The notes under the pieces were generated by a model. It ran no database searches, was not told the origin of the DNA, and saw only the letters and a program-made list of their open reading frames with translations. Below, piece after piece: positions 3,001-63,290 of a stretch of DNA of 64,000 nt. The stretch is from a virus (lineage: Duplodnaviria > Heunggongvirae > Uroviricota > Caudoviricetes): IMG/VR virus record IMGVR_UViG_2675903278_000002. One strand, 5' to 3'. The stretch's first letter is position 1; the number at the start of each line of letters is the position of its first letter. The position numbers and the translations under genes are program-made.

Positions 3001-3437
3001 TTGGTGGTTTAGGCAACTCTCAGTTCGGGTTCTACATGATTAACAAGTCACGAACCGCGAACGGCACGGATGCGAACGCATACCTCCAGAATGACGGTAC
3101 TTGGGTTTGCGGCGGTAATGGCAGCTTTAATGACGTTTATATCCGTTCTGACCGCCGTAGTAAGCGCAATATTCGCAAGATTGACCGGGCGCTCGACAAG
3201 CTGGAGCAGATCGAAGGTGTTCTCTACGAGATTCAGGTCTGTGGCCGTTATGAGCAGTCTGGTGGCCTCATCGCTCAGGATGTCCAGAATGTTCAACCTG
3301 AACTGGTAACGGTCGACCATAACGATCAGTCAGGAGAGCCTCGTCTGCGTCTTAACTACAACGGCGTTATCGGCATGTTGGTTGAGGCTGTCAAAGAGTT
3401 GCGCGAGGAAGTGCGCGAACTGAAGGCAAAAATGTAA
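27..3437 (+). CDS. Phage tail fiber protein with fiber repeats and C-terminal intramolecular chaperone (peptidase S74-like) domain; reading frame is open upstream to the window edge, so probably 5' partial
   Basis: 1136 aa ORF; duplicated NAATATKLQTARTIGGV(S/A)FDG(T/S)ANINLPGVNT motif typical of phage tail fiber repeats; C-terminal SDRRSKRNI ... LVEAVKELREEVRELKAKM resembles the autoproteolytic chaperone domain of endosialidase and L-shaped tail fibers; no stop codon between position 3 and the ATG at 27. Confidence 0.8.
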   Translation: MPQASSIVYIALIGGAGYNVGSPHQAGISELVLRAGNGNPKGITGALWKRTAVGLTNFAWINTSGDTYDIYVEIGNYATSVNIHWDCTANATVSIYTSPTYSASKPSSVTDGVVYTMYSTHQKPTPLDIGALPTTGGTVSGPLSVTGGLTGSLNGNASTATKLQTARTIGGVSFDGTANINLPGVNTTGNQNTTGNAATATKLQTARTINGVKFDGSADITLTPANLDVYSKSEIDNKKGMRKYTFSAPANAVSGKWYPIVFRRSGGNTDELASRVVITTYSSAGGYAMNNCEFNGFVMPGGWSDRGSYAAGFFSIYSTAERAIHSIISGVKDDDLCSVFYVEARAFPIKIFAEEGLNVIVPTADYAVGQTTYKWGATDPLSESTNAQIILDFKNGRGYYCSHPFISSLSGNAATATKLQTARTIGGVAFDGSANINLPGVNTAGNQNTTGNAATATKLQTARNINGVKFDGSGDININTLVSRGRVTALSGSTQGTAGIQMYEAYNNSYPTMYGNVLHMKGASASGEGEMLVGWSGTDGAHAPVYVRSRRDTSTANWSGWAQIYTTAHKPTAKDVGAAQAFSASYSTGAGNWTTAEFIAWLKERGAFEVPYWMMKGSWSYADNKIITDTGVGNICLAGAVIEVLGTEGAMTIRVTTPTTTTGGGIACAQFTYINHGSAYAPAWRRDYNTTLKPTAADVGALPSGGGTLSGALTLSMAAPSVQLRGQGTDTRQYIMAYRTDGATSWYVGKANNGSDNAMFWNYTGSNGIELAADGNVRINAKGKQFTFANNGNLGLVASLDQSSVPQGTYHQVALNTGTVGGKSYLRKFRGGNTDTIWHETVQGGFLRWATGNADEQEELSISTGYGVRARGEITSLSANGLRVAYGNYGFFIRNDGGTTYFLLTASGDKFGSWNALRPMYINNASGAVTMGNGLSLAGGLNVTSGNIRIPTSSTSWIDMRNNAALSNSSAVATSSASAIIRQEHADRHYFVGGLGNSQFGFYMINKSRTANGTDANAYLQNDGTWVCGGNGSFNDVYIRSDRRSKRNIRKIDRALDKLEQIEGVLYEIQVCGRYEQSGGLIAQDVQNVQPELVTVDHNDQSGEPRLRLNYNGVIGMLVEAVKELREEVRELKAKM
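481..700 (+). repeat. Copy 1 of an approx 210 bp intragenic duplication in the tail fiber gene (second copy at 1260..1470)
   Basis: Near-identical nucleotide and peptide segments encoding GNA(S/A)TATKLQTARTIGGV.FDG.ANINLPGVNT.GNQNTTGNAATATKLQTAR.INGVKFDGS. Confidence 0.7.
1260..1470 (+). repeat. Copy 2 of the tail fiber intragenic duplication
   Basis: Direct comparison with 481..700 in the sequence. Confidence 0.7.
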
Positions 3438-3503
3438 TCAAGGTGAATGGTGAGGGGCCACCCTCACCAATTCAGGATATTCACATCAAAAAGGAGATTA
3501 GAT

Positions 3504-4286
3504 GTGCCAATTGTCGGTGTTCCCGGTTGGATTGGGTCTTCGGCTGTCAGTGTGACAGGCCAGAGATGGATGAGTGCGGCTCGAACGGCGGTGCAACTGC
3601 CAGCGGCTGGTTCAATGTCTCAAATGGCCGGGCGATCTAAAGAAGTTCAGTACAGCATCGGTGCGAATCATAACTACAACAAAGACACACTGATCAACTA
3701 TTTAAAATCCCAGGGGGCGACGCCAGTCGTTGTTACCATTACAGGGGATCTGGTGTCGTCCAGTAGCGGCGTGCCATGTTTAGATTTCCCGAGTTCACTT
3801 ACCAACTCTTATATCAGCCTTGTAATCAACGCAGGTGTGACTGTCTATGGACGCGGTGGCAATGGTGGTAGTAACGCTGCCGGTGCTGCTGGTGGTAACG
3901 CAATTAATAATGGCATCGGTACACGCTTGCGTATTACGAATAATGGTGCAATCGCTGGAGGTGGTGGCGGCGGTGGCGGTGGTAACAGGGGTAAACTAAT
4001 ATTTGGTGGTGGCGGTGGTCGCCCATTCGGTGCTGGTGGGTCTTCCTCTCATATGAGTTCCGGTGCAACTGCTGGTACTATTTCCGCTCCTGGTAAAGGA
4101 TCTGTTGGTGAGGGGTCTCTTAGTGCATATACAGGCGGTTCGGGTGGTAATGTCGGTGCTGCTGGAGGAAGATGTAATACTCAAGGTAACGGTACAGAAT
4201 ATAACGGCGGGGCAGCTGGTAAAGCCGTAACTGGCAACGCGCCTACATGGACTAAAGCTGGGGCAATTTACGGCGCTCATGTGTAA
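3504..4286 (+). CDS. Glycine-rich hypothetical protein, possibly tail-fiber associated; proposed GTG start
   Basis: ORF 3447..4286; AAGGAG at 3491..3496 sits 7 nt upstream of GTG 3504; long poly-Gly tracts (GGGGGGGGGN, GGGGG); lies between tail fiber and lysis genes. Confidence 0.45.
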   Translation: MPIVGVPGWIGSSAVSVTGQRWMSAARTAVQLPAAGSMSQMAGRSKEVQYSIGANHNYNKDTLINYLKSQGATPVVVTITGDLVSSSSGVPCLDFPSSLTNSYISLVINAGVTVYGRGGNGGSNAAGAAGGNAINNGIGTRLRITNNGAIAGGGGGGGGGNRGKLIFGGGGGRPFGAGGSSSHMSSGATAGTISAPGKGSVGEGSLSAYTGGSGGNVGAAGGRCNTQGNGTEYNGGAAGKAVTGNAPTWTKAGAIYGAHV

Positions 4287-4360
4287 GTACTTACCTACCA
4301 AGTGTGGGCGTTTTATGATATAAAACCGCCATCCCGATTTGACTTTTCATGGAGGAAAAC

Positions 4361-4697: not shown

Positions 4698-5390
4698 ATG
4701 AAAACTCCGAGAGGCATTCGTAATAACAACCCTGGCAACCTCGACAAAGGTTCGCCGTGGCAGGGGCTAATCGACAACCCTGCCGAACCGCGCTTTTGCA
4801 CGTTTAAAGACCCTGTTTGGGGGATTCGTGCGCTGGCGGTGACTCTAATTACCTACCACGACAAACGTCGCGCAAAAGACGGCTCAAGTATCGATACCAT
4901 TCGTGAAGTTATTGAACGTTGGGCACCGCCGAATGAAAACAATACTGACGCCTACATTAATGAGGTGTCTAAAGCCGTTGGTGTAACCGCAGACATGATT
5001 ATCGATCTGCATGATTACGACATTCTTCGACCTTTGGTTGAGGCAATCATTCGCCATGAGAATGGGCGAGGTCCGCTAAAAACGCTGAACACCTGGTATG
5101 CGGCAGAAGTTATTGAGGAAGGTCTGCGTCGAGCTGGCGTTGTTAAGCCGGCGAAAACCGTGAAGGCTGTTCCTGTAACTAAAGAAACCGCAGGCGCAAC
5201 TGTTACAGCAGGTATTGGTCTGGCGCAGCTGGCCGATGTTATGCCGCAGGTTTCCGCTGCTATGGATAAAGCACAAGGTCATATCTCTAGCGGGGATACA
5301 GTACGCATCATCTTCGGTATTGCCACTATTGTTGTGGCAGGATTCATTGCCTGGTCGCAGGTAAGAAAACACCAGAAAGGGATGGTCTAA
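4698..5390 (+). CDS. Putative endolysin or peptidoglycan hydrolase (family not assigned)
   Basis: AGGAG RBS before ATG 4698; N-terminal GIRNNNPGNL motif; gene order small membrane protein - this gene - i-spanin - o-spanin matches a canonical lysis cassette; C-terminal hydrophobic segment is atypical. Confidence 0.45.
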   Translation: MKTPRGIRNNNPGNLDKGSPWQGLIDNPAEPRFCTFKDPVWGIRALAVTLITYHDKRRAKDGSSIDTIREVIERWAPPNENNTDAYINEVSKAVGVTADMIIDLHDYDILRPLVEAIIRHENGRGPLKTLNTWYAAEVIEEGLRRAGVVKPAKTVKAVPVTKETAGATVTAGIGLAQLADVMPQVSAAMDKAQGHISSGDTVRIIFGIATIVVAGFIAWSQVRKHQKGMV

Positions 5391-5391
5391 T

Positions 5392-5643
5392 ATGCTAGGC
5401 AGCCTGATGACAAAGCTAAAAGTTGCTTTGATTACGCTGGCTGCCGTTCTTTTCGTTCTTGTCGGCGCTTACACGATGGGCGGGAATGCGGCGCGACGAG
5501 CAATGGAAGAGAAGGCAAAACAGGAAGACAGAAAACGACTTCAAAACACAGTGAAAGTGGTGAATGAGACGAGCAGTAAAATACGTCAGAAAGATGCTTC
5601 TGCCGTTCATCGTGAGTTGTATGATAAGTGGGTGCGTCATTAA
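5392..5643 (+). CDS. i-spanin (Rz-like inner membrane spanin subunit)
   Basis: N-terminal transmembrane helix LKVALITLAAVLFVLVGAY followed by a charged coiled-coil-like region; start overlaps the upstream stop; contains the o-spanin gene in another frame. Confidence 0.6.
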   Translation: MLGSLMTKLKVALITLAAVLFVLVGAYTMGGNAARRAMEEKAKQEDRKRLQNTVKVVNETSSKIRQKDASAVHRELYDKWVRH

Positions 5644-5779
5644 ACCACAAACAGCCAGCGTGTTGTTCTGCGATGGGGCTGAGCCTATCTATATCAGCAA
5701 TAATGATGTAATGACTGAAGAAACCGAACGCCAAATCCTTTTTCACAATACGATGGGAGAGAGGGTTTGTGGTTGGTGA
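5594..5779 (+). CDS. o-spanin (Rz1-like outer membrane lipoprotein), overlapping the 3' end of the i-spanin gene
   Basis: MLLPFIVSCMISGC signal peptide with lipobox cysteine; out-of-frame overlap with 5392..5643, the classic Rz/Rz1 arrangement. Confidence 0.55.
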   Translation: MLLPFIVSCMISGCVIKPQTASVLFCDGAEPIYISNNDVMTEETERQILFHNTMGERVCGW

Positions 5780-6928: not shown

Positions 6929-7597
6929 ATGACCAAGATCTTTGTGGTTGGCGGCACAAAGGGCGGGCCTGGCAAATCCACCGTTGCCCAGCAAATTGCC
7001 GTTTGCCTGAAAGTCAAAAAGAAGAAGAAGGTTTATATTACCGATATAGATATTCAGCGCACGACAACGAGCTGGTGTGAAGACCGTCGACAGAACGAAG
7101 ACCTTGAGCTGATTCCTTTTGCATACGTTCAGGATGACATCATTAAGCACCTAAAATCGCTTCAGGGTAGAGCTGAGTTTGTAGTGGTAGATGCTGGTGG
7201 CTTCGACTCCGAAATTCAGCGACAAGCGATGCTGATGGCTGACGTTATCATTATCCCGCTGCGTCCTAAGCGTCGTGATTTGAAATCTTTACGTGACATC
7301 GATCCTATTATCGACAATGTTCGCAATGTAAACGATAAAGTGAAGGTCCGCGCGGTCATGAACCAGTGCCCGGCTTTGCCATCACAAGTGTCTCGCATTC
7401 TGGCGGCTAAAGAGATTGTTGAGACGTTTGGAATCGAGTCTGCGCCAGTCAATCTATATAACCGCAACGTCTATGATGATGCGGAAGAGTCTGGTCGTTC
7501 TATCTTTGAAATGACCGGTAGCGAGCGCGACAAAAAGGCGGAAGCCGAGTTTGAAGAATTTGTAGATTATCTGTTGAGTCTGGAGGAAGAAGAATAA
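6929..7597 (+). CDS. parA: ParA-family partition ATPase (small type Ib)
   Basis: Deviant Walker A GGTKGGPGKST; 222 aa; followed by a small RHH protein gene. Confidence 0.85.
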   Translation: MTKIFVVGGTKGGPGKSTVAQQIAVCLKVKKKKKVYITDIDIQRTTTSWCEDRRQNEDLELIPFAYVQDDIIKHLKSLQGRAEFVVVDAGGFDSEIQRQAMLMADVIIIPLRPKRRDLKSLRDIDPIIDNVRNVNDKVKVRAVMNQCPALPSQVSRILAAKEIVETFGIESAPVNLYNRNVYDDAEESGRSIFEMTGSERDKKAEAEFEEFVDYLLSLEEEE

Positions 7598-7956
7598 TGT
7601 CCATGAAAATGGGTGACCTAGCAAAGCGCAAAGAGCCTGATGCACCGGCTAAGAACACAACTCCTTTGCGCCAACCAGTCAGACCACAGGGACGCCCGAC
7701 TCGTGGCAAAGAGAAAATTAAAAGCCGCACAATGTCACTGGAGGACGAATACTTCGAACTGCTGGAGATGATGAAGTTCATCCCTCGCTTCGAGAAGTTC
7801 ACTCGTTCTGACGTGATTCGAGCAGCCATTTTCCATCTGGCAGAGAAGTCACCGCAGGAAATCGAGGACATCGTGAAATTGAATGAGGCGATCACCGCTG
7901 CCGATGTCACGATGCGTACCGATGAAATTAAACGCGAGTTGATGAAGAAAGGGTGA
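7597..7956 (+). CDS. Partition centromere-binding protein (ParG/ParB-like, ribbon-helix-helix)
   Basis: Start overlaps parA stop; basic disordered N-terminus plus C-terminal RHH-like segment MSLEDEYFELLEMM...RSDVIRAAIFHLAE. Confidence 0.5.
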   Translation: MSMKMGDLAKRKEPDAPAKNTTPLRQPVRPQGRPTRGKEKIKSRTMSLEDEYFELLEMMKFIPRFEKFTRSDVIRAAIFHLAEKSPQEIEDIVKLNEAITAADVTMRTDEIKRELMKKG

Positions 7957-8007
7957 TTATATTGGGCGTTTGTTACGCCCAATATATGAGTTGAAGGATA
8001 GACACCA

Positions 8008-9714
8008 ATGGAATCGATAGAAGTATTTTTAAAAAATTTTTTGGACTCAGATCATCGGGTTGCTGTCATAAAAGGAAATTGGGGAGTAGGTAAAACGCAT
8101 TATTGGAATAGCTTTTATACTAAACATTCTAAAAAATTAGATTTTAATGCATATTCATATGTTTCTTTGTTTGGAATAAATTCTATTGGAGACATTAAAA
8201 AAGCTCTTTATCATTGTGCCACACCAATTAATGAAAAGAAATATAAAGAACTGATTTTATCTGAAACGGATCGAACTATGATTCGTTATAGAAATGGGTT
8301 TTGGGGATGGTTGAAATACAACTCCTTGTCAAAATTTTTAATACATTTTGGAAAGAACGATTTTTTTGGGTTCAAAACTGATAATCTGCTGTCATCTCTT
8401 GAGTATAAATTTGTTAATAATTATTTGGTTTGCATTGATGATATTGAACGAAAAGGTAGTGCGCTAGAAATTAAAGAGATTATGGGGGTAATTGATGAGT
8501 TGGCAAGAAGAAAAAATTGCAAGGTTGTTCTAATATTAAATGAAGATAACTTACATGAAGAAACTGCACAACAACAGTTTTTAGAGTATAGAGAAAAAAT
8601 AATTGATGTGGAAATAAAATACGATCCCACGCCTGAGAAAAACTTAAGAAAAGTTTTTTATGAGACTGACCCTGATTTTCTTTTGTTAAAAAACCTAGTA
8701 AATGATTTAAACATCAAAAACATTAGAATATTAAATAAAATAAAATCATCTCTAGTTATATTTAGAGATGTGCTAAAGTTAGCAGAGGATAAGGTTAGAG
8801 AAAGTTTTATTAATAGATTGGTCTTATTTTCAGTGGTTTACTATTTTGGTGTTCCTAGCGTTGATTATGCTTCATTTAAGGAGTCAATCAAAAATATACA
8901 TGCATTCGACTATATGTTAGATGATAAAGATGAAAAGGAAGAAGTTAACTCTGTATATTCATTTGTTAATAGCCTTGATGTTATTTATGAACGAGCAGAA
9001 AGTGCTTTCGATGATGATATAGATTTTTACCTTAAGAACGGTTATGTTTCTTCTGAAAGCAATATTCTAAATATAATAAAAGAAAAAAATGAACAATATA
9101 GAGATAATAGGGTTTTATGTGAGGTTTATAAAATTTGGGATGTTTTTAGAAACTCTTTTAAAGATAATGAATCAGAGTTTATTTTTCAAATTGAGCGCGT
9201 AATTAACGATAGTCTGTTGCGTATACCAATTGGACAGTTCGTAGGTTTAATAAATGTCCTAATTAAATTGGATAGAGATTGTAATAATATTATAGAGGCA
9301 TATGCAGATGCTTTTGTTAATAAAGACAATGCGTATGCTACATTTAATTCTTTGCGAGTAGAGATCTTCGGAAATGAAGAATTAGGTTTCAGAATTGAAA
9401 AAAAATTGAAAGATAGAAATCCAGATGACTATAACTTAGATAAAATTATAAAAAAAATAGCTGGTGGAAGATTTAACCATAGTGATGTGAATATTCTTAA
9501 CAGTTTTTCTAAAGATGATTACGTAAACTGGATATTATCCTGTGATCAGGATGCTTTGAATTTAGTAGAAGAGACTATGCTCAAGTTCAAGGGTATGCAA
9601 CACCCGACAGACGAACAGAAGAGCATCACTGATAAAGCAATAGAAGCTTTGGAGGAAGTTGCTTCAAAATCAACACTTAATAAGCTGCGTGTTAATAAAA
9701 TACTCAATCATTAA
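8008..9714 (+). CDS. KAP-family P-loop NTPase
   Basis: Walker A GNWGVGKTHYW near the N-terminus, diagnostic of KAP NTPases; 568 aa; coding sequence visibly far more AT-rich than neighbours. Confidence 0.75.
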   Translation: MESIEVFLKNFLDSDHRVAVIKGNWGVGKTHYWNSFYTKHSKKLDFNAYSYVSLFGINSIGDIKKALYHCATPINEKKYKELILSETDRTMIRYRNGFWGWLKYNSLSKFLIHFGKNDFFGFKTDNLLSSLEYKFVNNYLVCIDDIERKGSALEIKEIMGVIDELARRKNCKVVLILNEDNLHEETAQQQFLEYREKIIDVEIKYDPTPEKNLRKVFYETDPDFLLLKNLVNDLNIKNIRILNKIKSSLVIFRDVLKLAEDKVRESFINRLVLFSVVYYFGVPSVDYASFKESIKNIHAFDYMLDDKDEKEEVNSVYSFVNSLDVIYERAESAFDDDIDFYLKNGYVSSESNILNIIKEKNEQYRDNRVLCEVYKIWDVFRNSFKDNESEFIFQIERVINDSLLRIPIGQFVGLINVLIKLDRDCNNIIEAYADAFVNKDNAYATFNSLRVEIFGNEELGFRIEKKLKDRNPDDYNLDKIIKKIAGGRFNHSDVNILNSFSKDDYVNWILSCDQDALNLVEETMLKFKGMQHPTDEQKSITDKAIEALEEVASKSTLNKLRVNKILNH

Positions 9715-9722
9715 TAGATTAT

Positions 9723-9789
9723 GACCTGCTTCCGTATGTATTTAATAAGTTACTTATTATTTGTATATACAGAAGCAGGTCTTTTAAAG
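9723..9789. terminator. Large hairpin (10 bp stem GACCTGCTTC/GAAGCAGGTC, AT-rich 39 nt loop) followed by TTTTAAAG; putative terminator; same stem sequence recurs at 56751..56815
   Basis: Inverted repeat read directly in sequence downstream of the KAP NTPase stop. Confidence 0.4.
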
Positions 9790-9895
9790 ACACCCACCAG
9801 AACAAGTCCCTTCCGTTTCCACTTCCAAAAACTGCCACCAGTCGCTATCATCCGCTCATTGTGATAAGTAAGTAACTACCTACCAGGTGAGCCAC

Positions 9896-10636
9896 ATGAG
9901 CCAAATCTTTTTCGATACCATCGACAACGACCAGTACGACTTCATGACAGAGTGGAATACCGCTGTTATGGACAAGTGGGTTGCTGAAAACATTGGTTTG
10001 TCGCGCTGCAAAGACGAGGCTGAACTGTTTGAGACGAAGTGGTTTGATTACCGCGATATGCATCCTCTCATGGCCACCTGTCTGTTTACGGAGGCATACA
10101 AACGTCAGTACTCAAATATCATGCTGACGCACGGTCGTGAACACTTTGAAACAGCTCCGTTCACCACCGGGTTAAAACGCTTGCCTTATCAGGAGTTGTC
10201 GACTGCTAATAAAACGTCGCTATGGAAAGCACGCCAGTTTGCGGATCGCTATTGCTGCTCATACGACTACTTTATCTCCACTGTTCTTTCCGCAGCTGCA
10301 CGACGTCTGTGGGACAAGCTGCCTCGCCCACAGCATTTGTGGCAGCCAGAACTGATTGAGATATTTGAAGAGAAATTAGCCAGACGCGCAACAACCCGTC
10401 TGGATGACTCTCTGGTTAGCTTTAAGCATATGGGAGACATGCAGTTCAACCCGATTCAGGAAAGCTATTTTGAGTGGATTCTGGAGCGTTTGCGCACCAT
10501 CCCTCGCAGCAAGCGCATACGCGCAATTTTCTCCGCTATCTGGCTAATGGAAATCGTTCCAGAGCGCCTTATTTCCGACCACTTTCCAGAAGAACTGGAA
10601 GAAGCACGGCGGTTTATTGATCCCCTATCTAATTAA
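9896..10636 (+). CDS. Hypothetical protein
   Basis: ORF 9887..10636; AGGTGA RBS-like sequence 5 nt before ATG 9896. Confidence 0.5.
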   Translation: MSQIFFDTIDNDQYDFMTEWNTAVMDKWVAENIGLSRCKDEAELFETKWFDYRDMHPLMATCLFTEAYKRQYSNIMLTHGREHFETAPFTTGLKRLPYQELSTANKTSLWKARQFADRYCCSYDYFISTVLSAAARRLWDKLPRPQHLWQPELIEIFEEKLARRATTRLDDSLVSFKHMGDMQFNPIQESYFEWILERLRTIPRSKRIRAIFSAIWLMEIVPERLISDHFPEELEEARRFIDPLSN

Positions 10637-12101: not shown

Positions 12102-13280
12102 ATGAGCCTTTATGTTATATCAACATTTAGGTTGGTCACAATATTGCCTGTTAAAAGTGGAATTATCGTGAGCGAACTGAAAGAGCTAATTACCGAATTA
12201 GATTTTGAACAATGGTTGGACACTGAAGGTATCGTTTATCGACGTGGAGGCGTGAGTGCTCGCGGTCGTGAAGTGAATATCAAGGAGTGTCCGGTATGCG
12301 GCAGCTCCAACTGGAAGGTATATTTCAATCTGACCAGTGGCGTAGGCAAATGCTTCGCTGGTGATCATCCCGAAGAGATTCAGTTCAATAAGCTGGTCTT
12401 CCTCAAGCACTACAGCGGCAAATCACGACGACAGTTCGAGGAATATGTGCAGAACGCTCTTCTTTCCCAGGGGTGGGCACCAAAGAAAGAAGAGATAGTG
12501 CTTGCAAGCACAGTCGAGTTAGAGGGACCACTTGCACTCCCTCGTCATTACGAACTTCCTATAGATGGTCGTCTTCCAGACTATCTGGTTGAACGAAACA
12601 TATCGCCTGAAATGGCAAAGTATTTTGACCTACGATACTGCGTCGAAGGCAAGCACGCTTATGTAGATCCGTATACAGATCAGGTTAAAGGACAGATATT
12701 CGATATGCGAATACTGATACCGGTTTACGATCTGGATGGGGTAATGAAGACATTTCAGGGGCGAGACATTACCGGTACAGCTGAACGTCGCTACCTCTTT
12801 CCTATGCAGCTTCCAGCTTCAGGTAAGTTTCTCTACAACGGCCATAATGCGGTCGGCAAACAGACTGTAGTTGTCTGTGAGGGGGCGTTCGATGTTATGG
12901 GGGTTAAACGAGCTATTTTTGATGAAGAAACATTACGTGATTACGTGGAACCGATAGGAACGTTCGGGATGCATCTATCTGGTAACACCACTCAGGATGC
13001 AGAAGATCAGTTAGGCGCGTTCCTGACGCTCAAGGCGCGTGGGTTACGTAATGTGATCATGATGTGGGATAGTGAAAAGCAAGCTATACGTAATACGATG
13101 GCCGCAGCCAGGCGACTGACCAGTATTGGTCTTAATGTCAAAGTGGCGTGTTTGGGCGAGGAAGGACTCGACCCGGGCGATGCAACGCCAGAGCAAATCA
13201 TCAAAGCCTATTATCGGGCAAAACCGTATACCAAGCAGTTGGAGTTACAAAGCAAGGTTTTGGGCATTAAGGCTCTATGA
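12102..13280 (+). CDS. DNA primase (zinc-binding domain plus TOPRIM)
   Basis: CPVCGSSNWKVYFNLTSGVGKCFAG zinc ribbon; TOPRIM-like VVVCEGAFDVMGV; ATG 12102 is preceded by the recurrent AAAAACACATG context; the longer GTG 12030 start lies inside a hairpin. Confidence 0.75.
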   Translation: MSLYVISTFRLVTILPVKSGIIVSELKELITELDFEQWLDTEGIVYRRGGVSARGREVNIKECPVCGSSNWKVYFNLTSGVGKCFAGDHPEEIQFNKLVFLKHYSGKSRRQFEEYVQNALLSQGWAPKKEEIVLASTVELEGPLALPRHYELPIDGRLPDYLVERNISPEMAKYFDLRYCVEGKHAYVDPYTDQVKGQIFDMRILIPVYDLDGVMKTFQGRDITGTAERRYLFPMQLPASGKFLYNGHNAVGKQTVVVCEGAFDVMGVKRAIFDEETLRDYVEPIGTFGMHLSGNTTQDAEDQLGAFLTLKARGLRNVIMMWDSEKQAIRNTMAAARRLTSIGLNVKVACLGEEGLDPGDATPEQIIKAYYRAKPYTKQLELQSKVLGIKAL

Positions 13281-43086: not shown

Positions 43087-43315
43087 AGCAAAGTCGTTAT
43101 GGGAGCTTTCGAGACTTTGCCATCACGATGAAAAGACTTGAACGAGGCCAGACGGTGATGTTTCACAAGCCCTACCCGCCACAAGGAAATCCCGTAGCGT
43201 TTTATCTTGGAAGGTTAACAAGAAAAGGCGTATTGAGGCGCAGATCCTTCCCGGCGCATACGGAGTTCAGATTGAAAGAAGGCCAAAAGCTAACACGCGG
43301 TATCAGAGGTGTTAT

Positions 43316-45232
43316 ATGAAGTTTTTAAAGCTCCAGGTTGAGAATTTTATGGCTATCGCCAGCGCGGAGGTCGAGTTAGATCAGCGTGGTTTAGTGCTTA
43401 TTCAGGGTGTTAATAGTGATGATAGTTCCGCATCAAGTAATGGCTCTGGAAAGTCAACTCTAATGAATAGCCTGATGTGGTGTCTTTATGGCGAAACAGC
43501 TCATGGTGTGAAGGGTGACGATGTGTTGTCTACCGACCATGAAAAGAACTGTCGTGTTGCAGTAACCATCGAGGATGAAGGCAAGAGATACGCAATCATT
43601 CGTCACCGTAAACACAAAGAGTTCAAAAATCGTCTTATCGTTCGTGGTGAAGATGGCGATATGACGAAAGGCAAAGATGCGCTGACGCAGGAGTTCGTCG
43701 AGCGTCTGATCGGTGCATCTAAAGAGGTTTTCATGGCTTCCATCTATGCGAGCCAAGAAGCTATGCCAGATTTACCTGGAATGTCCGACAAAAACCTCAA
43801 AACCATCGTAGAAGAAGCCGCTGGCGTTGACAGACTGACACGCGCCTACGCTATTGCTCGTGAGCGAGCTAATGCAGCTGCCGCACGTATGGATGTGGTT
43901 AAAACCAAATTGGAGTCGACAATCTCGACCATTGAGGCAACACAGTCAGAAATTGAGTCAGCGAAAGCCTCCTCTGAATCATGGGAGCAAGAGCGTTCTA
44001 AACGTTATGACGATGCCCTGGCTGGGCTGGCCAGTGCCGAAGTTGAGTTAACGGAAGTTGAACTTGAGATCCGCACTCTTCCCGAACAGATACGTGATAC
44101 CGAGAAGGCAATCGAAAGTGAGCGCAAAAAGTTAGCCTCAAAAGAAGAACATGACGCCAAGTTGCTCAAAGTTCGTGGTGCGATAACTGATATTCGGGCA
44201 AGCATCAAAGCTACAGAAAATAGTCAGGCTGATGCAATGAACCGCGCGCGTAATTTTAAGACCAAAGCAGAAGAGGTTGGTACTAAAGTGGGATCACCAT
44301 GCCCTACTTGTGGCAAAGCCTACTGCGAAGAAGATCTATCAACGGTGAAGGAGAGTTTCATTGAACAAGCACGTCAGGAAATTGGTCAGGCGAAGACACT
44401 TGCAGAGGCAATGGCTAAACACAAAACGAATCTTGAGAAAGCGTTAAGCATTGAGTCTGCCCTTGTTAAAACGACACCTGATGTAACGGCTATCATTGCC
44501 CGGATTGAAGAGCTTACGAAACAACTCTCATCTTTGCGTCATCGTGAGAAGGAGGTTGTTGCTATTGAGTCTCTTGTGACTCGTGCTCGTACTGAGGTCG
44601 ATCGTATATCAAAAGAGATTAATCCGTTTATTGCTCTTATCGCCAGACACGAAGATAACTTGGTATCCAGTAAGTCTACCTTCAAGTCCTTAAAAGATGA
44701 GTCGAAGGCTATTCAGGAACAAACGTTGCTATTGGAAAAAGCTCGTCAGGTCTACTCTCCTGCCGGGGTGCGTTCTCATATTTTGACGTCTGTTACGCCT
44801 TTCCTGAATACACGCACTGCCGAGTATCTCAATACGTTGTCTGACGGGAATATTACTGCTGAGTGGTCGACGATGGATGTCACTAAAAAAGGTGAGTATC
44901 GCGACAAATTCAACATTAGTGTGCAGAAGAAAGGTTCAAGTAAGTCGTTCCAGACCCTCTCTGGTGGTGAGAAGCGGAAGGTTCGCATTGCGTGTTCTTT
45001 GGCATTGCAGGATCTGGTTAGTAACCGGGCGAGTAAAAACATCGATTTGTTTATCGGCGACGAAATTGACGATGCACTCGATACAGCCGGTCTTGAACGC
45101 CTCATGGGTATTCTGGAGTCCAAAGCTCGCGAGCGAGGTACTGTGCTGATTATCTCCCATAAAGAGATGAAGTCATGGTTCCGGGAAACTATTACGCTGG
45201 AAGTTAAAGAGGGGCGCAGCTATGTCGTTTAA
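43316..45232 (+). CDS. sbcC: SbcC/Rad50-like ATPase
   Basis: N-terminal Walker A GSGKSTLMNS, central coiled coil with CPTC zinc hook, C-terminal signature LSGGEKRKV and D-loop. Confidence 0.85.
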   Translation: MKFLKLQVENFMAIASAEVELDQRGLVLIQGVNSDDSSASSNGSGKSTLMNSLMWCLYGETAHGVKGDDVLSTDHEKNCRVAVTIEDEGKRYAIIRHRKHKEFKNRLIVRGEDGDMTKGKDALTQEFVERLIGASKEVFMASIYASQEAMPDLPGMSDKNLKTIVEEAAGVDRLTRAYAIARERANAAAARMDVVKTKLESTISTIEATQSEIESAKASSESWEQERSKRYDDALAGLASAEVELTEVELEIRTLPEQIRDTEKAIESERKKLASKEEHDAKLLKVRGAITDIRASIKATENSQADAMNRARNFKTKAEEVGTKVGSPCPTCGKAYCEEDLSTVKESFIEQARQEIGQAKTLAEAMAKHKTNLEKALSIESALVKTTPDVTAIIARIEELTKQLSSLRHREKEVVAIESLVTRARTEVDRISKEINPFIALIARHEDNLVSSKSTFKSLKDESKAIQEQTLLLEKARQVYSPAGVRSHILTSVTPFLNTRTAEYLNTLSDGNITAEWSTMDVTKKGEYRDKFNISVQKKGSSKSFQTLSGGEKRKVRIACSLALQDLVSNRASKNIDLFIGDEIDDALDTAGLERLMGILESKARERGTVLIISHKEMKSWFRETITLEVKEGRSYVV

Positions 45233-45965
45233 ATTAAGCCGCTCGCAGTTTTTGCAGGTATTTGCAGTGATGCAGTCGATAAAACTGATCAATGGGCATA
45301 CTTCCAATGGTGCGGCTCCACGTATTCTGTGGGGCAGCAACAATATTGACGGAGTACAATTCGCCGCGTTGCTTGGTCTAATATCCGAGACGCCATTGAT
45401 GCAAAGTTTGAAATCACTACCACCTGGATGTATTGCGCCGATCCTGATTAATCCTTTTGTTGAGGGGGGATATCTTCCCAACGTCGGGCCTGGGTTTATT
45501 GCATCCCATGAAACTGAAGATCTTAACATTAATAGCGAAGGGTTCTTTGGGGGAATGGGTGCGCATCACTGTATGGCTTTCACGAACCTTATTCGACTTG
45601 CCAATAAGCGGGTGGATAGTTTGGCATCGCCAGGTGATGCTTTTACTGGTTTCCTTATCCAAAGGAGGGATAAAAAGTACAGTGCGGACAAACTACAGTT
45701 TGTTGGTAAGTATGGAGAAATGGTAGAAATCGAACTTCAGCTCCCTCATGTTTTAGCAAACGATAGTGCAGACAGTCGGAGGCTATTGGGCATCATGCGT
45801 CATTTCATAGCAAGTGGTGTTAAACATGCCGCAGATAAACGTGTCACGCAGGAAAATGAGTATTCAGACTTTGCAAACTATCCCCAACCAACGTTGCAAA
45901 CGGCAATAGTAGCCAATTCGTTGGAGGCGAGATTATTGGAAAACCCTATATGGGGAACATGGTAA
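45222..45965 (+). CDS. Hypothetical protein
   Basis: 247 aa ORF overlapping the sbcC stop. Confidence 0.45.
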   Translation: MSFKLSRSQFLQVFAVMQSIKLINGHTSNGAAPRILWGSNNIDGVQFAALLGLISETPLMQSLKSLPPGCIAPILINPFVEGGYLPNVGPGFIASHETEDLNINSEGFFGGMGAHHCMAFTNLIRLANKRVDSLASPGDAFTGFLIQRRDKKYSADKLQFVGKYGEMVEIELQLPHVLANDSADSRRLLGIMRHFIASGVKHAADKRVTQENEYSDFANYPQPTLQTAIVANSLEARLLENPIWGTW

Positions 45966-45974
45966 GGAGACTAT

Positions 45975-46544
45975 ATGAGTAAAAAAATCAGCGTAGTTGG
46001 TGTTGATCCCTCAATGAGCAACTTTGGGCTTGCTGTGGGCACTTTAGACCTTGAGACGGACGAACTTGAGATTCACGGCCTTACTCTTGTTGAGACTAAA
46101 GCGGGGAGTAACAAAAAGACCGTTCGTGTGAACAGTGACGATCTGCGCCGCGCCAGTGAAATATGGCGTGTTGCGAAGCCAATCATTGATAAGGCAAATA
46201 TGGTTTTTTGTGAGCTACCGGTTGGGAGCCAAAACTCTCGTTCGCAGACGTCTTACGGTATTTGTATCGGTGTACTTGCGTGTGTGGATAAGCCATTGAT
46301 CCAGGTTACTCCAAACGAAATCAAGCATTTTGTCGGCAATAAACTTACTACATCGAAAGAAGAGATTATCCAGTGGGCTACGAAAAAACACCCTAAAGCA
46401 CCGTGGCTGCGTCGTAAGCAATCTGGACAGGATGTTCTCGTGAACAAAAACGAACATTTGGCTGATGCGGTGGCTGCCATCCATACCGGTATGCAAACAG
46501 ATCAGTTCCGCCAGGTGCGCGATGTTCTTAAGTCTCTCATTTGA
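45975..46544 (+). CDS. RuvC-like Holliday junction resolvase
   Basis: N-terminal VVGVDPSMSNFGLAV and C-terminal HLADAVAAIHTG resemble the RuvC catalytic motifs. Confidence 0.55.
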   Translation: MSKKISVVGVDPSMSNFGLAVGTLDLETDELEIHGLTLVETKAGSNKKTVRVNSDDLRRASEIWRVAKPIIDKANMVFCELPVGSQNSRSQTSYGICIGVLACVDKPLIQVTPNEIKHFVGNKLTTSKEEIIQWATKKHPKAPWLRRKQSGQDVLVNKNEHLADAVAAIHTGMQTDQFRQVRDVLKSLI

Positions 46545-46577
46545 TTTCATTGATAGGTAAGTGCTTATCTATTAACA

Positions 46578-59254: not shown

Positions 59255-59680
59255 ATGTTAGGTTTCTTCAAAAAGAAAACTCGTAAAGCTGTTATCGAAG
59301 TCAAAAAAATGGAGAACCGTGATGCGGTTGAGGCCACCGTGTGGGGCGCGTACATGATCTCCTATGCCGACGGCACATGTGACGCAAAAGAAATTGCCAT
59401 TCTTGAGAAGACAATTGCAGCTCTGCCTGCGTTTTCTCCGTTTGCTGGTGAAATTGCCCAAATGAGCGCCAATATCCGTGCTCGTTACGAAGCGTCCCCT
59501 CGTTCTGCTAATGCACAGGCTATTCGTGAGCTGTCTGATATTGCGGGTACTCCAGAGGCGGTCGATGTTCTGTGTCTGTGCCTTGATATTGCCGACCAAG
59601 ACGGTATTGGCGAACAAGAAGAGCTGGCCCTGAAAAAGATCGCACAGGCGCTTCAGTTGTCACTGGATGCTTATCTCTAA
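59255..59680 (+). CDS. Hypothetical protein, possibly TerB-like
   Basis: 141 aa; segment VDVLCLCLDIADQDGIGEQEELALKKIAQALQL resembles TerB-type helical domains; GGAAAACACATG start context and upstream AAACAACTTGTTT palindrome. Confidence 0.4.
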   Translation: MLGFFKKKTRKAVIEVKKMENRDAVEATVWGAYMISYADGTCDAKEIAILEKTIAALPAFSPFAGEIAQMSANIRARYEASPRSANAQAIRELSDIAGTPEAVDVLCLCLDIADQDGIGEQEELALKKIAQALQLSLDAYL

Positions 59681-59838
59681 TGCTTGAGAGATTCCGGCTT
59701 GTGACCGTCATTGCTCTTCTGGTGATGGCGGTGTTGGTGGATTTTACGGGAAAGATGATGTCTGTCATTTCTGATGGCGTCCTCATTGGTCTGGCGATCT
59801 ACTTCGCTTATCCGCTAGTCCGTAAAGCAACGTGTTAA
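59680..59838 (+). CDS. Small membrane protein (52 aa), not in ORF track
   Basis: ATG overlapping the upstream stop; two hydrophobic segments; followed by a terminator. Confidence 0.3.
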   Translation: MLERFRLVTVIALLVMAVLVDFTGKMMSVISDGVLIGLAIYFAYPLVRKATC

Positions 59839-59977: not shown

Positions 59978-60547
59978 ATGTGCAAGAAATGCAAAGCGAT
60001 AGCTGATGAACAAAACGCCTTATTCGAAGAAATGGATGCTAATGAACTGGTCAAAATGTTAGCCATTCTTCGAGGAATAGAAGACGTTTCCATATTTGAG
60101 AGAGTGGTTACAGCACTTAATTTTGAGTCCACCTTTGAAGAGCCAACTCAGGTTGTAGCTTTAGCACATCATTTCGGTGTTCATTATCTTGCTGAAAAAG
60201 AGCGCGCTGATAAGTTGCAGGCGACTTTGGATATGGTGAGCGAGACTCAACGAACTGATGACACTAACAAGAGTGAGGCGATTATTGCCAGCAAAGATCG
60301 TGAAATTGCTGGGCTTAAATCCTCTCTAACGATGTTGATGTCTGCGTTCAATCTTATGTCTTCTCAGGCGGGTTATAAAATGCCATCACTAAACAGCGAT
60401 GATCCGATGGCCGTTCGTCAGCTTTTGGGAGCAATGGCCGACCAACTCGACGACACAAAGAGTCGGCTTGAAGACATGATGCGTGAGTTAAGCCATCGAC
60501 ATAACCTCGCAACACAGCCACACAAAGCCTTTCAAAGCTCTAATTGA
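59978..60547 (+). CDS. Hypothetical protein
   Basis: 189 aa ORF with GGAAAAACACATG start context. Confidence 0.5.
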   Translation: MCKKCKAIADEQNALFEEMDANELVKMLAILRGIEDVSIFERVVTALNFESTFEEPTQVVALAHHFGVHYLAEKERADKLQATLDMVSETQRTDDTNKSEAIIASKDREIAGLKSSLTMLMSAFNLMSSQAGYKMPSLNSDDPMAVRQLLGAMADQLDDTKSRLEDMMRELSHRHNLATQPHKAFQSSN

Positions 60548-60602
60548 TCTGATATGGCCGCATGATCGGCCATATTGTGTTGATAAAAAACAAGGATGAA
60601 AA

Positions 60603-60884
60603 ATGGCATACGGTACAGGGATTTACAACAATAAAGGAATTAACGTTACTGGCTTCCTTACTCCTATTTTTTTTCTTGATCGATTTACTGCGTCATCAGG
60701 CTCTAAGACGTACTCCAATCCGCCACCGGGTAAATCGCTACATGCCGTGTGGTCATTGATGCCTCTTAACAACGACAACTACATTAATTTACCTGTTCCA
60801 ACAGTTACTATTAATGGAAATACGGTTAGTTGGTCAAATTTATATACGGGGCTTGGTTCTTACATATACACATACTGGGGATAA
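60603..60884 (+). CDS. Hypothetical protein
   Basis: 93 aa ORF in an AT-rich segment. Confidence 0.35.
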   Translation: MAYGTGIYNNKGINVTGFLTPIFFLDRFTASSGSKTYSNPPPGKSLHAVWSLMPLNNDNYINLPVPTVTINGNTVSWSNLYTGLGSYIYTYWG

Positions 60885-60886
60885 TT

Positions 60887-61501
60887 ATGTTCGGGATGTC
60901 AATTACTCAATCAGATGGAAGTTTGTGGATGAGTCCAGAATTTACTCCGCAAAATCTGATTAATAAAGGGACAATGTCTACATCTAAAGGTTCTGTTTTT
61001 CAAACATCAATCCCATCAAACAAATCATGCTTTTTCTTCATAAAAAGCAGTAATAAGGCGAACATGATGTTTATTCATGAGCATAGTAACGGATACAATG
61101 CTCTCAGATTGCATCAGGTAAATGGTAGCCCCGGAACAATAACAGTTTATGCTTTTTCTGATATGGTGTTACCACATTCTGGCTATGGCATTGCCATGTA
61201 TAACAGCGCAGGCGCAATGGTGTATCACGGTGAGATGATGCCCCTTGATGCGAAACTTATCACTATTTCTGACCCTCAATTTACAATAGATATGGGGTAT
61301 CCATGTGCGGTAATGCCTGCTATGGTTGGGGTATATAACTATAGACGAACCGATTACGACAGACCTGTCTATGTAACAATGACAGGTGCAACTGGAAACC
61401 AAGTATATAACGGTCAATGGTATTCCGGTAATGTCACATGGGATATTAAGAAGATTTATACAAACAAAATTCTGGTGATAAATACCTCCAAGTATGATTA
61501 G
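60887..61501 (+). CDS. Hypothetical protein (possibly secreted or membrane)
   Basis: ORF 60830..61501; ATG 60887 follows a GGGGA RBS and the upstream stop; AT-rich. Confidence 0.4.
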   Translation: MFGMSITQSDGSLWMSPEFTPQNLINKGTMSTSKGSVFQTSIPSNKSCFFFIKSSNKANMMFIHEHSNGYNALRLHQVNGSPGTITVYAFSDMVLPHSGYGIAMYNSAGAMVYHGEMMPLDAKLITISDPQFTIDMGYPCAVMPAMVGVYNYRRTDYDRPVYVTMTGATGNQVYNGQWYSGNVTWDIKKIYTNKILVINTSKYD

Positions 61502-61604
61502 CCAATGCCTTTATTTGAAGGATTGCCTGTTTATTTCTATTTAGTACCTTTTCATTTTTGAAATAATTGCACCATTAAACAAATCACTTCTTAATGGTGC
61601 AATT

Positions 61605-63290
61605 ATGAATACAGCCCTTTCCATCATCGACGATGCCAACTCAAACACTGCTATCGACTATCGGCAGGAAATGAACGTCATCCACGAAATTGTGGCCGAG
61701 TGCGAGAAAGAGATCGCCTTCATGTATCAGGTACACGACTTCGTTTATGGCGACGAACGCCACAACATGATTAATCGCCTGCTGAGACTAAACCATCGAC
61801 CAGATGAAGATCGCTCGCGTTTAAATCGAGGTTGGTTGGATAAAGTCGATCTGGAATGGGTGAAACAGAATATTTGGGCCGAGTACTGGAGGAAGGTCAC
61901 GGACATGACTAACGTTTTGCTGATCATGCCAGCTTCCCGTCGAGATGAGTGGCGCGAGCAGTTTATAGAGGGCAAACAGGAAGTCATCAAAACTGACAGA
62001 ACCGGCTACCAGATGAAGGTTAAAGAGTTCGTTGGTGTACCGGAGTTCAAAGCAGAAACGGTCATACCCACGATGCTTAATTTGCTGAATGACAGGCACA
62101 AATATCTCTCTGAGCGCGTGTATGGCTTGTTTAAGGCGCTGAGTCCTGCGCACAAGACAAATAAGACAAACGGTTTCAGCGAACGTCTGATAATCGCTGA
62201 CTGCATTTCTGATTTCTGGCGGGACAGCGTTAGTGTGAACTATCGCAAAGAGGACTATATCGACGATCTGCGTGTCTTGCTTCATTTCTTCGCGCACAAA
62301 GAATTTATTACCATCAACCGCACTGCTGAGGTGCTATCAGCTGCGTATCGGGCAAACGACTGCCAGACCGGTGACTGGATGAACGTCGATGGAAATCTAA
62401 TGCGCGTGAAGATGTTCAAGAACGGCAACGTTCACTTTGAAATACATCCTGACGTGGCCTGGAAGTTGAATGAGGTGCTGGCTTACAGTATGCCTGCTGC
62501 AATCCCCGCGCCATGTCGCACCGCGCCAAAAACACGGGCACCAAAGCAGTTCGGGTTAATCCAGAAGACGATCTCCGTGCCGGTTCGCACTGCGCTTCGT
62601 GACGGGCGATTAAGCAAAGACAAAGGCGTATGGTACTTCTCTGATTCAGCTCTCCAGAAGTCGCAGGTGGAAGAGCTTGAGCGCACACTGAGCTTCATTG
62701 GCGGCGTGCAGGAGAAAAAGCACTGGCAGTTCCCGTATGAGATCGGCCATACGCTAAATACGATTGTGGCTACCGGATTAATACCGGATACAAAATCACA
62801 CCAGTTCTACCCTACCCCACGCTTGATTGCTGAGTACGTTGCCAGAGCCACTGAATTGAAGTCTGGTGAGAAGCTGCTGGAGCCTCAAGCCGGACGTGGG
62901 GATCTTCTGGCCTATATCAACGCCGATCTGGAAGATGTTACCTGCATAGAAATCGCACCTCTCTTCGCTGATATCCTGCGCGGAAAAGGGTATACGAACA
63001 CGATTTGCTGCGACTTCATAAAGTGGTCTGAGGACAACGTAGGTTATCAGTTCGACAAAATCGTTATGAACCCGCCGTACTCGCTTGGTCGTCATAGAGA
63101 GCACACGCTGGCTGCGCTGGGGCATCTGAAAGTCGGCGGGCGTCTTGTAGCAGTATTGCCGGGCACTGCGCCAATACTGGACTGGATGACGATGGATAAT
63201 TACGTTTATGCCAGAGGGAAGTCGTTTACCAACGAGTTTGAAGACACAGGGATCACAGTCAGCGTATACGTTTTCAAACGCGTTAAATGA
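61605..63290 (+). CDS. Large protein with C-terminal DNA methyltransferase domain (N6-adenine or N4-cytosine class) and an uncharacterised N-terminal domain of about 400 aa
   Basis: C-terminal SAM-binding-like LEPQAGRGDL and catalytic NPPYS. Confidence 0.55.
   Translation: MNTALSIIDDANSNTAIDYRQEMNVIHEIVAECEKEIAFMYQVHDFVYGDERHNMINRLLRLNHRPDEDRSRLNRGWLDKVDLEWVKQNIWAEYWRKVTDMTNVLLIMPASRRDEWREQFIEGKQEVIKTDRTGYQMKVKEFVGVPEFKAETVIPTMLNLLNDRHKYLSERVYGLFKALSPAHKTNKTNGFSERLIIADCISDFWRDSVSVNYRKEDYIDDLRVLLHFFAHKEFITINRTAEVLSAAYRANDCQTGDWMNVDGNLMRVKMFKNGNVHFEIHPDVAWKLNEVLAYSMPAAIPAPCRTAPKTRAPKQFGLIQKTISVPVRTALRDGRLSKDKGVWYFSDSALQKSQVEELERTLSFIGGVQEKKHWQFPYEIGHTLNTIVATGLIPDTKSHQFYPTPRLIAEYVARATELKSGEKLLEPQAGRGDLLAYINADLEDVTCIEIAPLFADILRGKGYTNTICCDFIKWSEDNVGYQFDKIVMNPPYSLGRHREHTLAALGHLKVGGRLVAVLPGTAPILDWMTMDNYVYARGKSFTNEFEDTGITVSVYVFKRVK

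Follow-up and report, generated by a model that had tools for sequence, protein, structure and literature searches.

What function could be served by two small AT-rich genes that lie between conserved genes of an SSU5-like phage-plasmid, about 55 kb away from its tail module? The window (the whole stretch of DNA that was analysed, 64,000 nucleotides long) was recognised by sequence comparison as deriving from an SSU5-like phage-plasmid of E. coli. A 2.1 kb segment around the two genes is 100% identical to many plasmids of ~110 kb; its identity is 98.5% with the phage-plasmid Cyrano (from strain LF82) and 91% with phage PhiR41_1, and the match of SSU5 itself to this region begins only at the methyltransferase gene. 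Our literature search found no paper on the biology of PhiR41_1. SSU5-like phage-plasmids are frequent in E. coli, Salmonella, Klebsiella and Enterobacter, with 422 PLSDB records matching the locus, and phage-plasmids of this kind can carry resistance genes (PMC9600943). The sequence-only reading of the window had described two neighbouring, co-oriented open reading frames that are richer in AT than their surroundings, and had suggested that they are horizontally acquired cargo, possibly related to the cell surface or to exclusion.

The inserted segment and its surroundings

Both open reading frames, here termed ORF1 and ORF2, are present as described, and their coordinates are collected in Table 1. 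They are tightly coupled on the same strand, with only 2 nt between the ORF1 stop codon (TAA, 60882-60884) and the ORF2 ATG (60887), and each is preceded by a Shine-Dalgarno-like sequence (AAGGA at 60592-60596 and GGGGA at 60877-60881, respectively). A promoter scan returned no sigma-70-like site upstream of ORF1, and no late promoter was identified either. The hairpin at the left flank of the insertion has a predicted RNA folding energy of -15.7 kcal/mol (z -2.67); it is not a typical intrinsic terminator, because it is not followed by a T-run.

Table 1. Coordinates of the features discussed; positions refer to the window unless another genome is named
Feature	Position	Strand	Description
Inserted segment	60527..61546		1020 bp relative to the empty-site relatives pEC881_2 and SSU5
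Hairpin	60552..60575	+	ATATGGCCG / CGGCCATAT, 6-nt loop; left flank of the insertion, just 3' of the stop codon of the upstream gene
ORF1	60603-60884	+	93 aa; small partner, PHROG 557 'Ig-like small protein'
ORF2	60887-61501	+	204 aa; large partner, PHROG 425 'hand-like protein'; putative receptor-binding subunit
Re-annotated ORFs	SSU5 12611-13219; pEC881_2 9380-9607 and 9618-10226		Corrected starts / Cor-like ORF

The difference in composition is real: the segment has a GC content of 38.9% (ORF1 39.7%, ORF2 38.7%; GC3 37%), against 44.0% and 49.9% for the flanking genes and 45.6% for the window as a whole. In a scan by windows of 899 bp (standard deviation 3.7%), only 3.6% of the windows are equally low in GC, the segment being one of three regions of this kind. 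AT content peaks elsewhere in the window (29-33% GC; low-GC stretch from 7531 to 10200), where a gene at 8008-9714 encodes a KAP-family P-loop NTPase of 568 aa (Pfam E 7.7e-6, with a weak nSTAND3 hit); this gene lies beside the partition genes, is absent from Cyrano at that position and is a candidate defence or abortive-infection gene.

Alignment with the E. coli plasmid pEC881_2 and with SSU5 defines the segment as an insertion, with homology ending at 60526 and restarting at 61547. The empty site of these relatives is ~100 bp long; it contains the final codons of the upstream gene as well as a canonical terminator, GGGGGCGAAAGCCCCC-T6, all of which is replaced by the insertion. The flanks are conserved in the relatives and the segment behaves as an indel between them, in keeping with the placement between conserved genes that had been claimed: 124 plasmids carry the segment, while other plasmids have both flanks at ~93% identity and lack it. 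The coding part (60597-61501) shares 76% DNA identity with the locus downstream of gpJ in the virulent Nonagvirus JenP1, and the edges of the insertion (70 bp and 45 bp) have no match in JenP1 or at the empty site. When two insertion-bearing plasmid lineages are compared, identity is 78-90% in the cassette and 92-100% in the flanks. Horizontal acquisition, which had been read from base composition, is therefore upheld by this presence/absence comparison, by the JenP1-like coding DNA and by the greater divergence of the cassette relative to its flanks. A comparison of two alleles of the cassette, both from this ectopic site, gives dN/dS values of 0.075 for ORF1 and 0.10 for ORF2 at dS values of 0.67-0.84, and both ORFs are intact, at full coverage, in 119 plasmids. 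Both genes are under strong purifying selection.

The cassette is bordered on one side by a conserved hypothetical gene of phrog_5508 and on the other by the DUF4942 methyltransferase gene. Upstream, at 59255-59838, lie a small DUF3927/TciB-like gene and a gene whose product has a TerB domain (Pfam E 1.6e-6) and resembles P1 TciA, the 'tellurite/colicin resistance protein'; both genes are conserved with or without the cassette. Downstream, a perfect 16-bp inverted repeat (61563-61606; ATAATTGCACCATTAA ... TTAATGGTGCAATTAT, with a 12-nt loop) covers with its right arm the ATG (61605) of the DUF4942/N6-methyltransferase gene. The corresponding RNA hairpin has a folding energy of -19.1 kcal/mol (z -6.06), and the repeat is retained in pEC881_2 and SSU5 with a compensatory G:C to A:T change; it could be involved in translational or operator control of the methyltransferase.

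Family, fold and homologous pairs in other phages

The sequence-only reading found no recognisable motif in either protein, which holds for Pfam, NCBIfam and PADLOC, where neither ORF gave a hit above threshold, but not for PHROGs: ORF1 belongs to phrog_557 (E 4.7e-29, residues 1-93) and ORF2 to phrog_425 (E 2.2e-72, residues 1-204). The labels 'outer membrane protein' and 'membrane associated protein', which the two families bear in public annotations, have been propagated with no experiment behind them. Assignment of ORF2 to Pfam DUF6453 (PF20051) was rejected, its score of 15.4 bits (E 0.012) lying below the gathering cut-off of 25; DUF6453 was likewise unmatched by ten relatives that we scanned, six of which are fusion proteins of 309-323 aa.

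The hydrophobic N-terminal segments that had been attributed to ORF2 are an artefact of start-codon choice. They exist solely in an extension of the listed open reading frame to a TTG at 60830, which overlaps the 3' end of ORF1 in a different frame, and the homologues of ORF2 all begin with M-(F/Y)-G, M1 and G3 being invariant in the alignment. The maximum 19-residue Kyte-Doolittle mean is 1.10 for ORF2 and 0.94 for ORF1, compared with 1.71 for the artefactual extension and 1.76 for the lipoprotein signal of tonn gp65. No signal peptide, lipobox or transmembrane segment is found in ORF1 or ORF2.

An exhaustive profile search yielded 114 cluster representatives, most of them 200-230 aa in length, with a subset of 309-325 aa. 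The latter are fusions, in which hhalign matches the N-terminal 80 residues to the ORF1 family (93.5%, E 2.2e-7) and the remainder to the ORF2 family (99.5%, E 3.2e-22); they match both PHROGs, and a tblastn search with one of them spans both genes of the split loci in order. Given the existence of these fused one-chain relatives, ORF1 and ORF2 are best regarded as two parts of one functional unit. A further candidate for internal relatedness, a YG-x3-YN-x2-G repeat that would occur once at the N-terminus of each protein and again at residues 99-112 of ORF2, was set aside as statistically unsupported (hhalign 4%, weak HMM hits).

In structure comparison, the sole strong fold match of ORF2 is a receptor-bound receptor-binding protein (RBP) of the LptD type (PDB 9RPT chain C). 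Its lower-ranking matches, the lectin 3WMP and the fibre 4MTM, have likewise been reported for models of LptD-type RBPs (PMC13035648). The AlphaFold2 model of ORF1 (pLDDT 82) is a small β-sandwich with weak structure matches. Neither the ORF2 profile nor that of the fusion proteins found a relevant sequence in the PDB. The matching RBP, that of phage Oekolampad, shares its fold with ORF2; this RBP and its homologue Rtp44 differ from the pair described here in being one polypeptide of ~310 aa, where the pair is split in two, and have no pairwise sequence similarity to it. Rtp44 defines phrog_1265 (E 9e-99), which ORF2 matches only over profile positions 158-287 (E 2.6e-6); full-length membership of ORF2 in that family was rejected, as hhalign comparisons of the ORF2 and fusion profiles with the Rtp44 sequence (PHROG 1265) were not significant. 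The J tip of Rtp is also of another type, and the partner of its RBP is the Sie lipoprotein Rtp45.

Homologous gene pairs lie beside tail genes in several groups of phages, and the order, small gene then large gene, is common to JenP1, tonn, Bas04, Bas06, Stx86, phi24B and SSU5. The JenP1 pair, with amino acid identities of 76% (gp22) to ORF1 and 83% to ORF2, adjoins gpJ and is convergent with it. In tonn, FritzSarasin (Bas04) and KarlJaspers (Bas06), a gene for a Cor-like lipoprotein (phrog_1119, E 8e-8) is followed by the pair, convergent next to gpJ, and in Bas04 and Bas06 the locus contains nothing else. Bas04_24 and Bas06_25 are 49-55% identical to ORF1, and the Drexlerviridae homologues of ORF2 are 39-42% identical to it. 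Both Bas04 and Bas06 require BtuB. The FhuA-dependent phage Bas05 encodes a divergent homologue of the pair, with proteins of 103 and 197 aa (profile E 5e-6 and 1.6e-11, respectively), together with Cor. Phage Rtp shows the same layout, with the exclusion lipoprotein gene rtp45 and the RBP gene rtp44. The region has been described as a 'bona fide RBP locus downstream of gpJ', tied to terminal receptor specificity and horizontally exchanged (BASEL, PMC8594841; receptor screen, bioRxiv 10.64898/2026.04.02.716166); the supplement of the receptor screen has no receptor entries for JenP1, JenP2 or BRET.

The pair is also found 3' of the tail fibre gene and 5' of lom in more than 100 Stx phages, and in phi24B it lies directly 3' of the tail needle gene. 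There, ORF1 has 63% identity to vb_24B_41, once the latter is extended to its true start, and ORF2 has 61% identity to vb_24B_42 over the full length. Matusiak et al. (2025, PMC12309495) proposed members of PHROG 425 and PHROG 557 as undetected RBPs, using AlphaFold-Multimer models with FhuA and BamA for Dhillonvirus JLBYU60 and Traversvirus tv24B. In phi24B, gp54 (204 aa) was detected at low abundance in purified virions, a small additional density was visible by cryo-EM at the central needle tip, and gp54, alone or with gp55, was proposed as the BamA-binding protein (Bubenchikov et al. 2026, bioRxiv 10.64898/2026.04.10.717836). The literature support for these two families as RBPs thus consists of genomic association, AlphaFold models and one virion proteome.

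The ancestral pair and the tail tip of SSU5-like phages

SSU5 has its own version of the module within the tail genes, between the tail-fibre adhesin gene and the holin gene: a divergent pair, SSU5_023/SSU5_024, followed by Cor (SSU5_025). Members of this pair are 27-30% identical to ORF1 and ORF2 (pairwise E 7e-7 and 2.5e-17, respectively; profile E-values 4e-9 for the smaller protein and 8.6e-22 for the larger). The same arrangement is found in pEC881_2, which lacks the insertion, including an unannotated ORF for a 76-aa Cor-like lipoprotein between the pair and the holin gene. In the annotations of SSU5 and pEC881_2, the large gene of the pair begins 14 codons too late; the true start, MYGSK..., overlaps the upstream stop codon (TAATG), and SSU5_024 is 202 aa long. 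We place SSU5_023/SSU5_024 in the same superfamily as the window pair, with a role on the same J protein that is presumably shared, although the two differ in that the SSU5 pair lies in the tail module, is followed by Cor and almost never occurs together with the window-type cassette.

In the tail modules of the window, Cyrano, the AR_0104 plasmid and PhiR41_1, we found neither a pair of the SSU5 type nor Cor, and no gene for a Cor-like lipoprotein was found anywhere in the window. The corresponding site of the window (3437-4349) is occupied by a Gp38 adhesin in place of the pair. A long side tail-fibre gene (27-3437) is followed there by the gene for a T-even-type Gp38 adhesin (3447-4286; Pfam GP38 E 4.7e-70, Gp38_N E 1.2e-14); the distal side fibre of the window is unlike that of Cyrano, and the arrangement amounts to a T2-like fibre tip on a siphovirus phage-plasmid.

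Among PLSDB plasmids, which are related to one another so that the counts do not lend themselves to a formal test of independence, the window-type pair is present in 124 records, the SSU5-type pair in 126 and either type in 244, leaving by subtraction six records with both; on inspection, CP099126.1, which belongs to these six, did have both types. This near-exclusive distribution is the pattern expected if every phage needs a single module of this sort and the incoming pair took over from the earlier one.

The J protein, on the other hand, shows no co-variation with pair type, since J of Cyrano, which carries the cassette, is 99.8% identical over its last 466 aa to that of pEC881_2, which does not, even though the two types of pair are only 27-30% identical. 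The J tip of the SSU5-like phages is 37-39% identical to that of JenP1 over the last 190 aa, and 32-39% identical to those of JenP1, tonn and Bas04 over the last 190-310 aa. A terminal NGVLRVxIGR motif is common to J of the SSU5-like phages, JenP1, tonn and Bas04, but not Rtp. In the AR_0104 plasmid (NZ_CP020118.1), whose cassette is 100% identical to that of the window, the J gene is broken by IS1 (5043-5740), and this copy is probably no longer an infective phage.

A putative receptor-binding module and its alternatives

From these observations, we consider it likely that ORF1 and ORF2 together form a horizontally acquired, two-subunit receptor-binding module of the tail tip, which resides at an ectopic position and replaces the ancestral pair. 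Small siphoviruses (Drexlerviridae, Dhillonvirus, Queuovirinae) and short-tailed Stx phages encode modules of what is most likely the same kind, just 3' of the central tail fibre gene (gpJ or that of the tail needle). That kind of module has recently been proposed, and here it is found at an unusual, ectopic locus in a phage-plasmid.

If so, both proteins would be made in the cytoplasm during lytic growth and would then assemble into a heterodimer, with ORF1 as the presumed counterpart of the N-terminal, tail-proximal domain of the one-chain relatives. Residues 1-125 of ORF2 would serve as a conserved scaffold, and its variable C-terminal region would contact the receptor. The dimer may dock non-covalently at the C-terminal tip of the J-like protein and thus be built into the virion, which would use it to bind a terminal outer-membrane protein receptor, leading to DNA delivery. 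The tail-proximal part of the RBP is disordered in the study of the LptD RBP, which fits, and does not prove, an ORF1-equivalent domain facing the tail. Co-expression with the virion genes is assumed in this scheme, since no promoter was identified and the cassette lies outside the tail module. Nor need the pair be the sole adhesin, because the long side fibre with its T-even Gp38-type adhesin is also present. The module would have come from a Nonagvirus-like virulent phage, been inserted ~55 kb from the tail genes and now stand in for the SSU5-type pair and Cor, which would have been lost from the tail module.

The closest characterised relative is the gp55/gp54 pair of phi24B (Traversvirus), which shares with ORF1 and ORF2 the PHROG families, full-length identity that includes the C-terminal third of ORF2, gene order, coupling and the lack of membrane-targeting signals. 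It differs in lying directly 3' of a podovirus needle gene; the pair described here belongs to a siphovirus phage-plasmid and is ~55 kb away from the tail genes. BamA as the receptor of phi24B is itself a proposal. The pairs of the Drexlerviridae (Bas04, Bas06, tonn) are homologous and of similar length (91-93 and 204 aa), and their J tip ends in the same motif, but their loci are convergent with gpJ and include a gene for a Cor-like lipoprotein, and the window has neither of these features. T5 pb5/Llp is alike in concept, with a separate RBP held non-covalently on a fibre tip and a separate exclusion lipoprotein (PMC12685063); pb5 is, however, a single protein of 640 aa, for which we found no relationship to the pair in sequence or fold.

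The receptors associated with the relatives are BtuB (Bas04, Bas06), FhuA (the divergent Bas05 pair) and BamA (proposed, phi24B). The variable part of ORF2 is its C-terminal third (~126-204). Compared with the BtuB-type proteins, ORF2 is 48-54% identical in residues 1-125 and 25% identical in residues 126-204, whereas in the latter region its identity is 61% with the Stx-phage protein and 85% with the JenP1 protein. The low identity of the C-terminal third means that BtuB specificity cannot be transferred from the Drexlerviridae, and BtuB was rejected as the assigned receptor on this ground. The same identities make BamA, by analogy with phi24B, a lead as candidate receptor, and BtuB a weaker one. 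SSU5-like phage-plasmids carry cobT-like and cobS-like cobalamin-synthesis genes (Cyrano 43137-46576), and BtuB, to which distant relatives of the cassette are linked, is the cobalamin transporter; the connection is probably a coincidence.

Three other explanations were weighed. The best of them, which we nevertheless judge unlikely, is that the pair, or ORF1 alone, is a tail-assembly accessory that acts as chaperone or adaptor for the central or side fibre, the receptor being recognised by J or by the Gp38-tipped fibre. In Stx phages and SSU5 the pair does lie 3' of tail-fibre genes, the usual position of fibre chaperones, structural or chaperone-like roles have been mentioned for some small ORFs (Matusiak et al., PMC12309495), 'accessory proteins' have been noted at these loci (Moriniere et al., bioRxiv 10.64898/2026.04.02.716166), and a J protein that does not co-vary with pair type would be in keeping with such a role. 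Against this, the one strong fold match of ORF2 is to an RBP bound to its receptor, the receptor-specifying locus of Bas04 and Bas06 consists of the pair and the lipoprotein gene only, gp54 of phi24B is retained in purified virions, and the C-terminal third of ORF2 differs between phages with different receptors, as a binding surface should.

It is still less probable that the cassette is a functionless passenger, in which case illegitimate recombination would have captured an RBP pair that once had a function and now plays no part in the phage-plasmid. Its ectopic location, the lack of an identified promoter, a J tip that is the same as in relatives without the cassette and the interruption of J by IS1 in at least one carrier (the AR_0104 plasmid) would all suit a passenger. 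Genes without a role would, however, hardly be expected to remain intact in 119 plasmids, to show the dN/dS values of 0.075-0.10 over dS 0.67-0.84 recorded at this ectopic locus, or to coincide with the absence of the ancestral pair in all but six of 244 records.

Least probable of all, to a degree that we give it very little credence, is lysogenic-conversion or superinfection-exclusion cargo whose products act at the host envelope to block phages or alter the surface: the family annotations as outer membrane or membrane associated proteins, the placement of phrog_425 among morons by PHROGs, the low GC content and inserted nature of the segment, and the cor and lom genes that adjoin homologous loci speak for it, but the proteins have no signal peptide, lipobox or hydrophobic segment, PADLOC gave no hit, the Sie function in related loci belongs to a separate Cor-like lipoprotein that is absent here, the membrane affinity of homologues was computed to be negligible (Matusiak et al., PMC12309495), and expression in the Cyrano lysogen is at background. 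Normalised levels during Cyrano lysogeny are 7.6 for CYRAN_88 and 11.4 for CYRAN_89, alongside 12.5 for J and 9.6 for the tail fibre, and CYRAN_88 and CYRAN_89 are outside the listed morons of Cyrano (PMC9928086), a pattern like that of structural genes, which also counts in favour of the receptor-binding module; lysogenic expression of the cassette is read here by proxy from Cyrano, at 98.5% identity. The exclusion half of the earlier suggestion accordingly falls away, and its surface half survives only in the sense that the products are, most likely, the phage's own adhesin for a host receptor.

Returning to the receptor-binding module, we can outline a bolder form of the proposal, which we offer tentatively and consider more doubtful than the module itself. 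It holds that the ectopic cassette may be the sole terminal-receptor adhesin of the E. coli SSU5-like lineage, swapped in from a virulent phage of the Queuovirinae type, working 55 kb from the tail genes and retargeting the particle to another outer-membrane protein, possibly the essential BamA; and that the split pairs of the BtuB, FhuA, SSU5 and Stx types, together with the one-chain LptD RBPs, may be one superfamily in split and fused forms.

The binding target of a phage-plasmid decides which strains are open to its entry. Should the proposal be correct, about half of the E. coli/Shigella lineage (123/191 records) would have swapped its ancestral adhesin for one shared with Nonagvirus and Stx phages, and receptor prediction centred on tail modules would miss the exchange at this locus. 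The cassette would also offer a natural test case for the position-independence of RBP modules, and families that have been treated as unrelated in receptor-prediction work would become linked.
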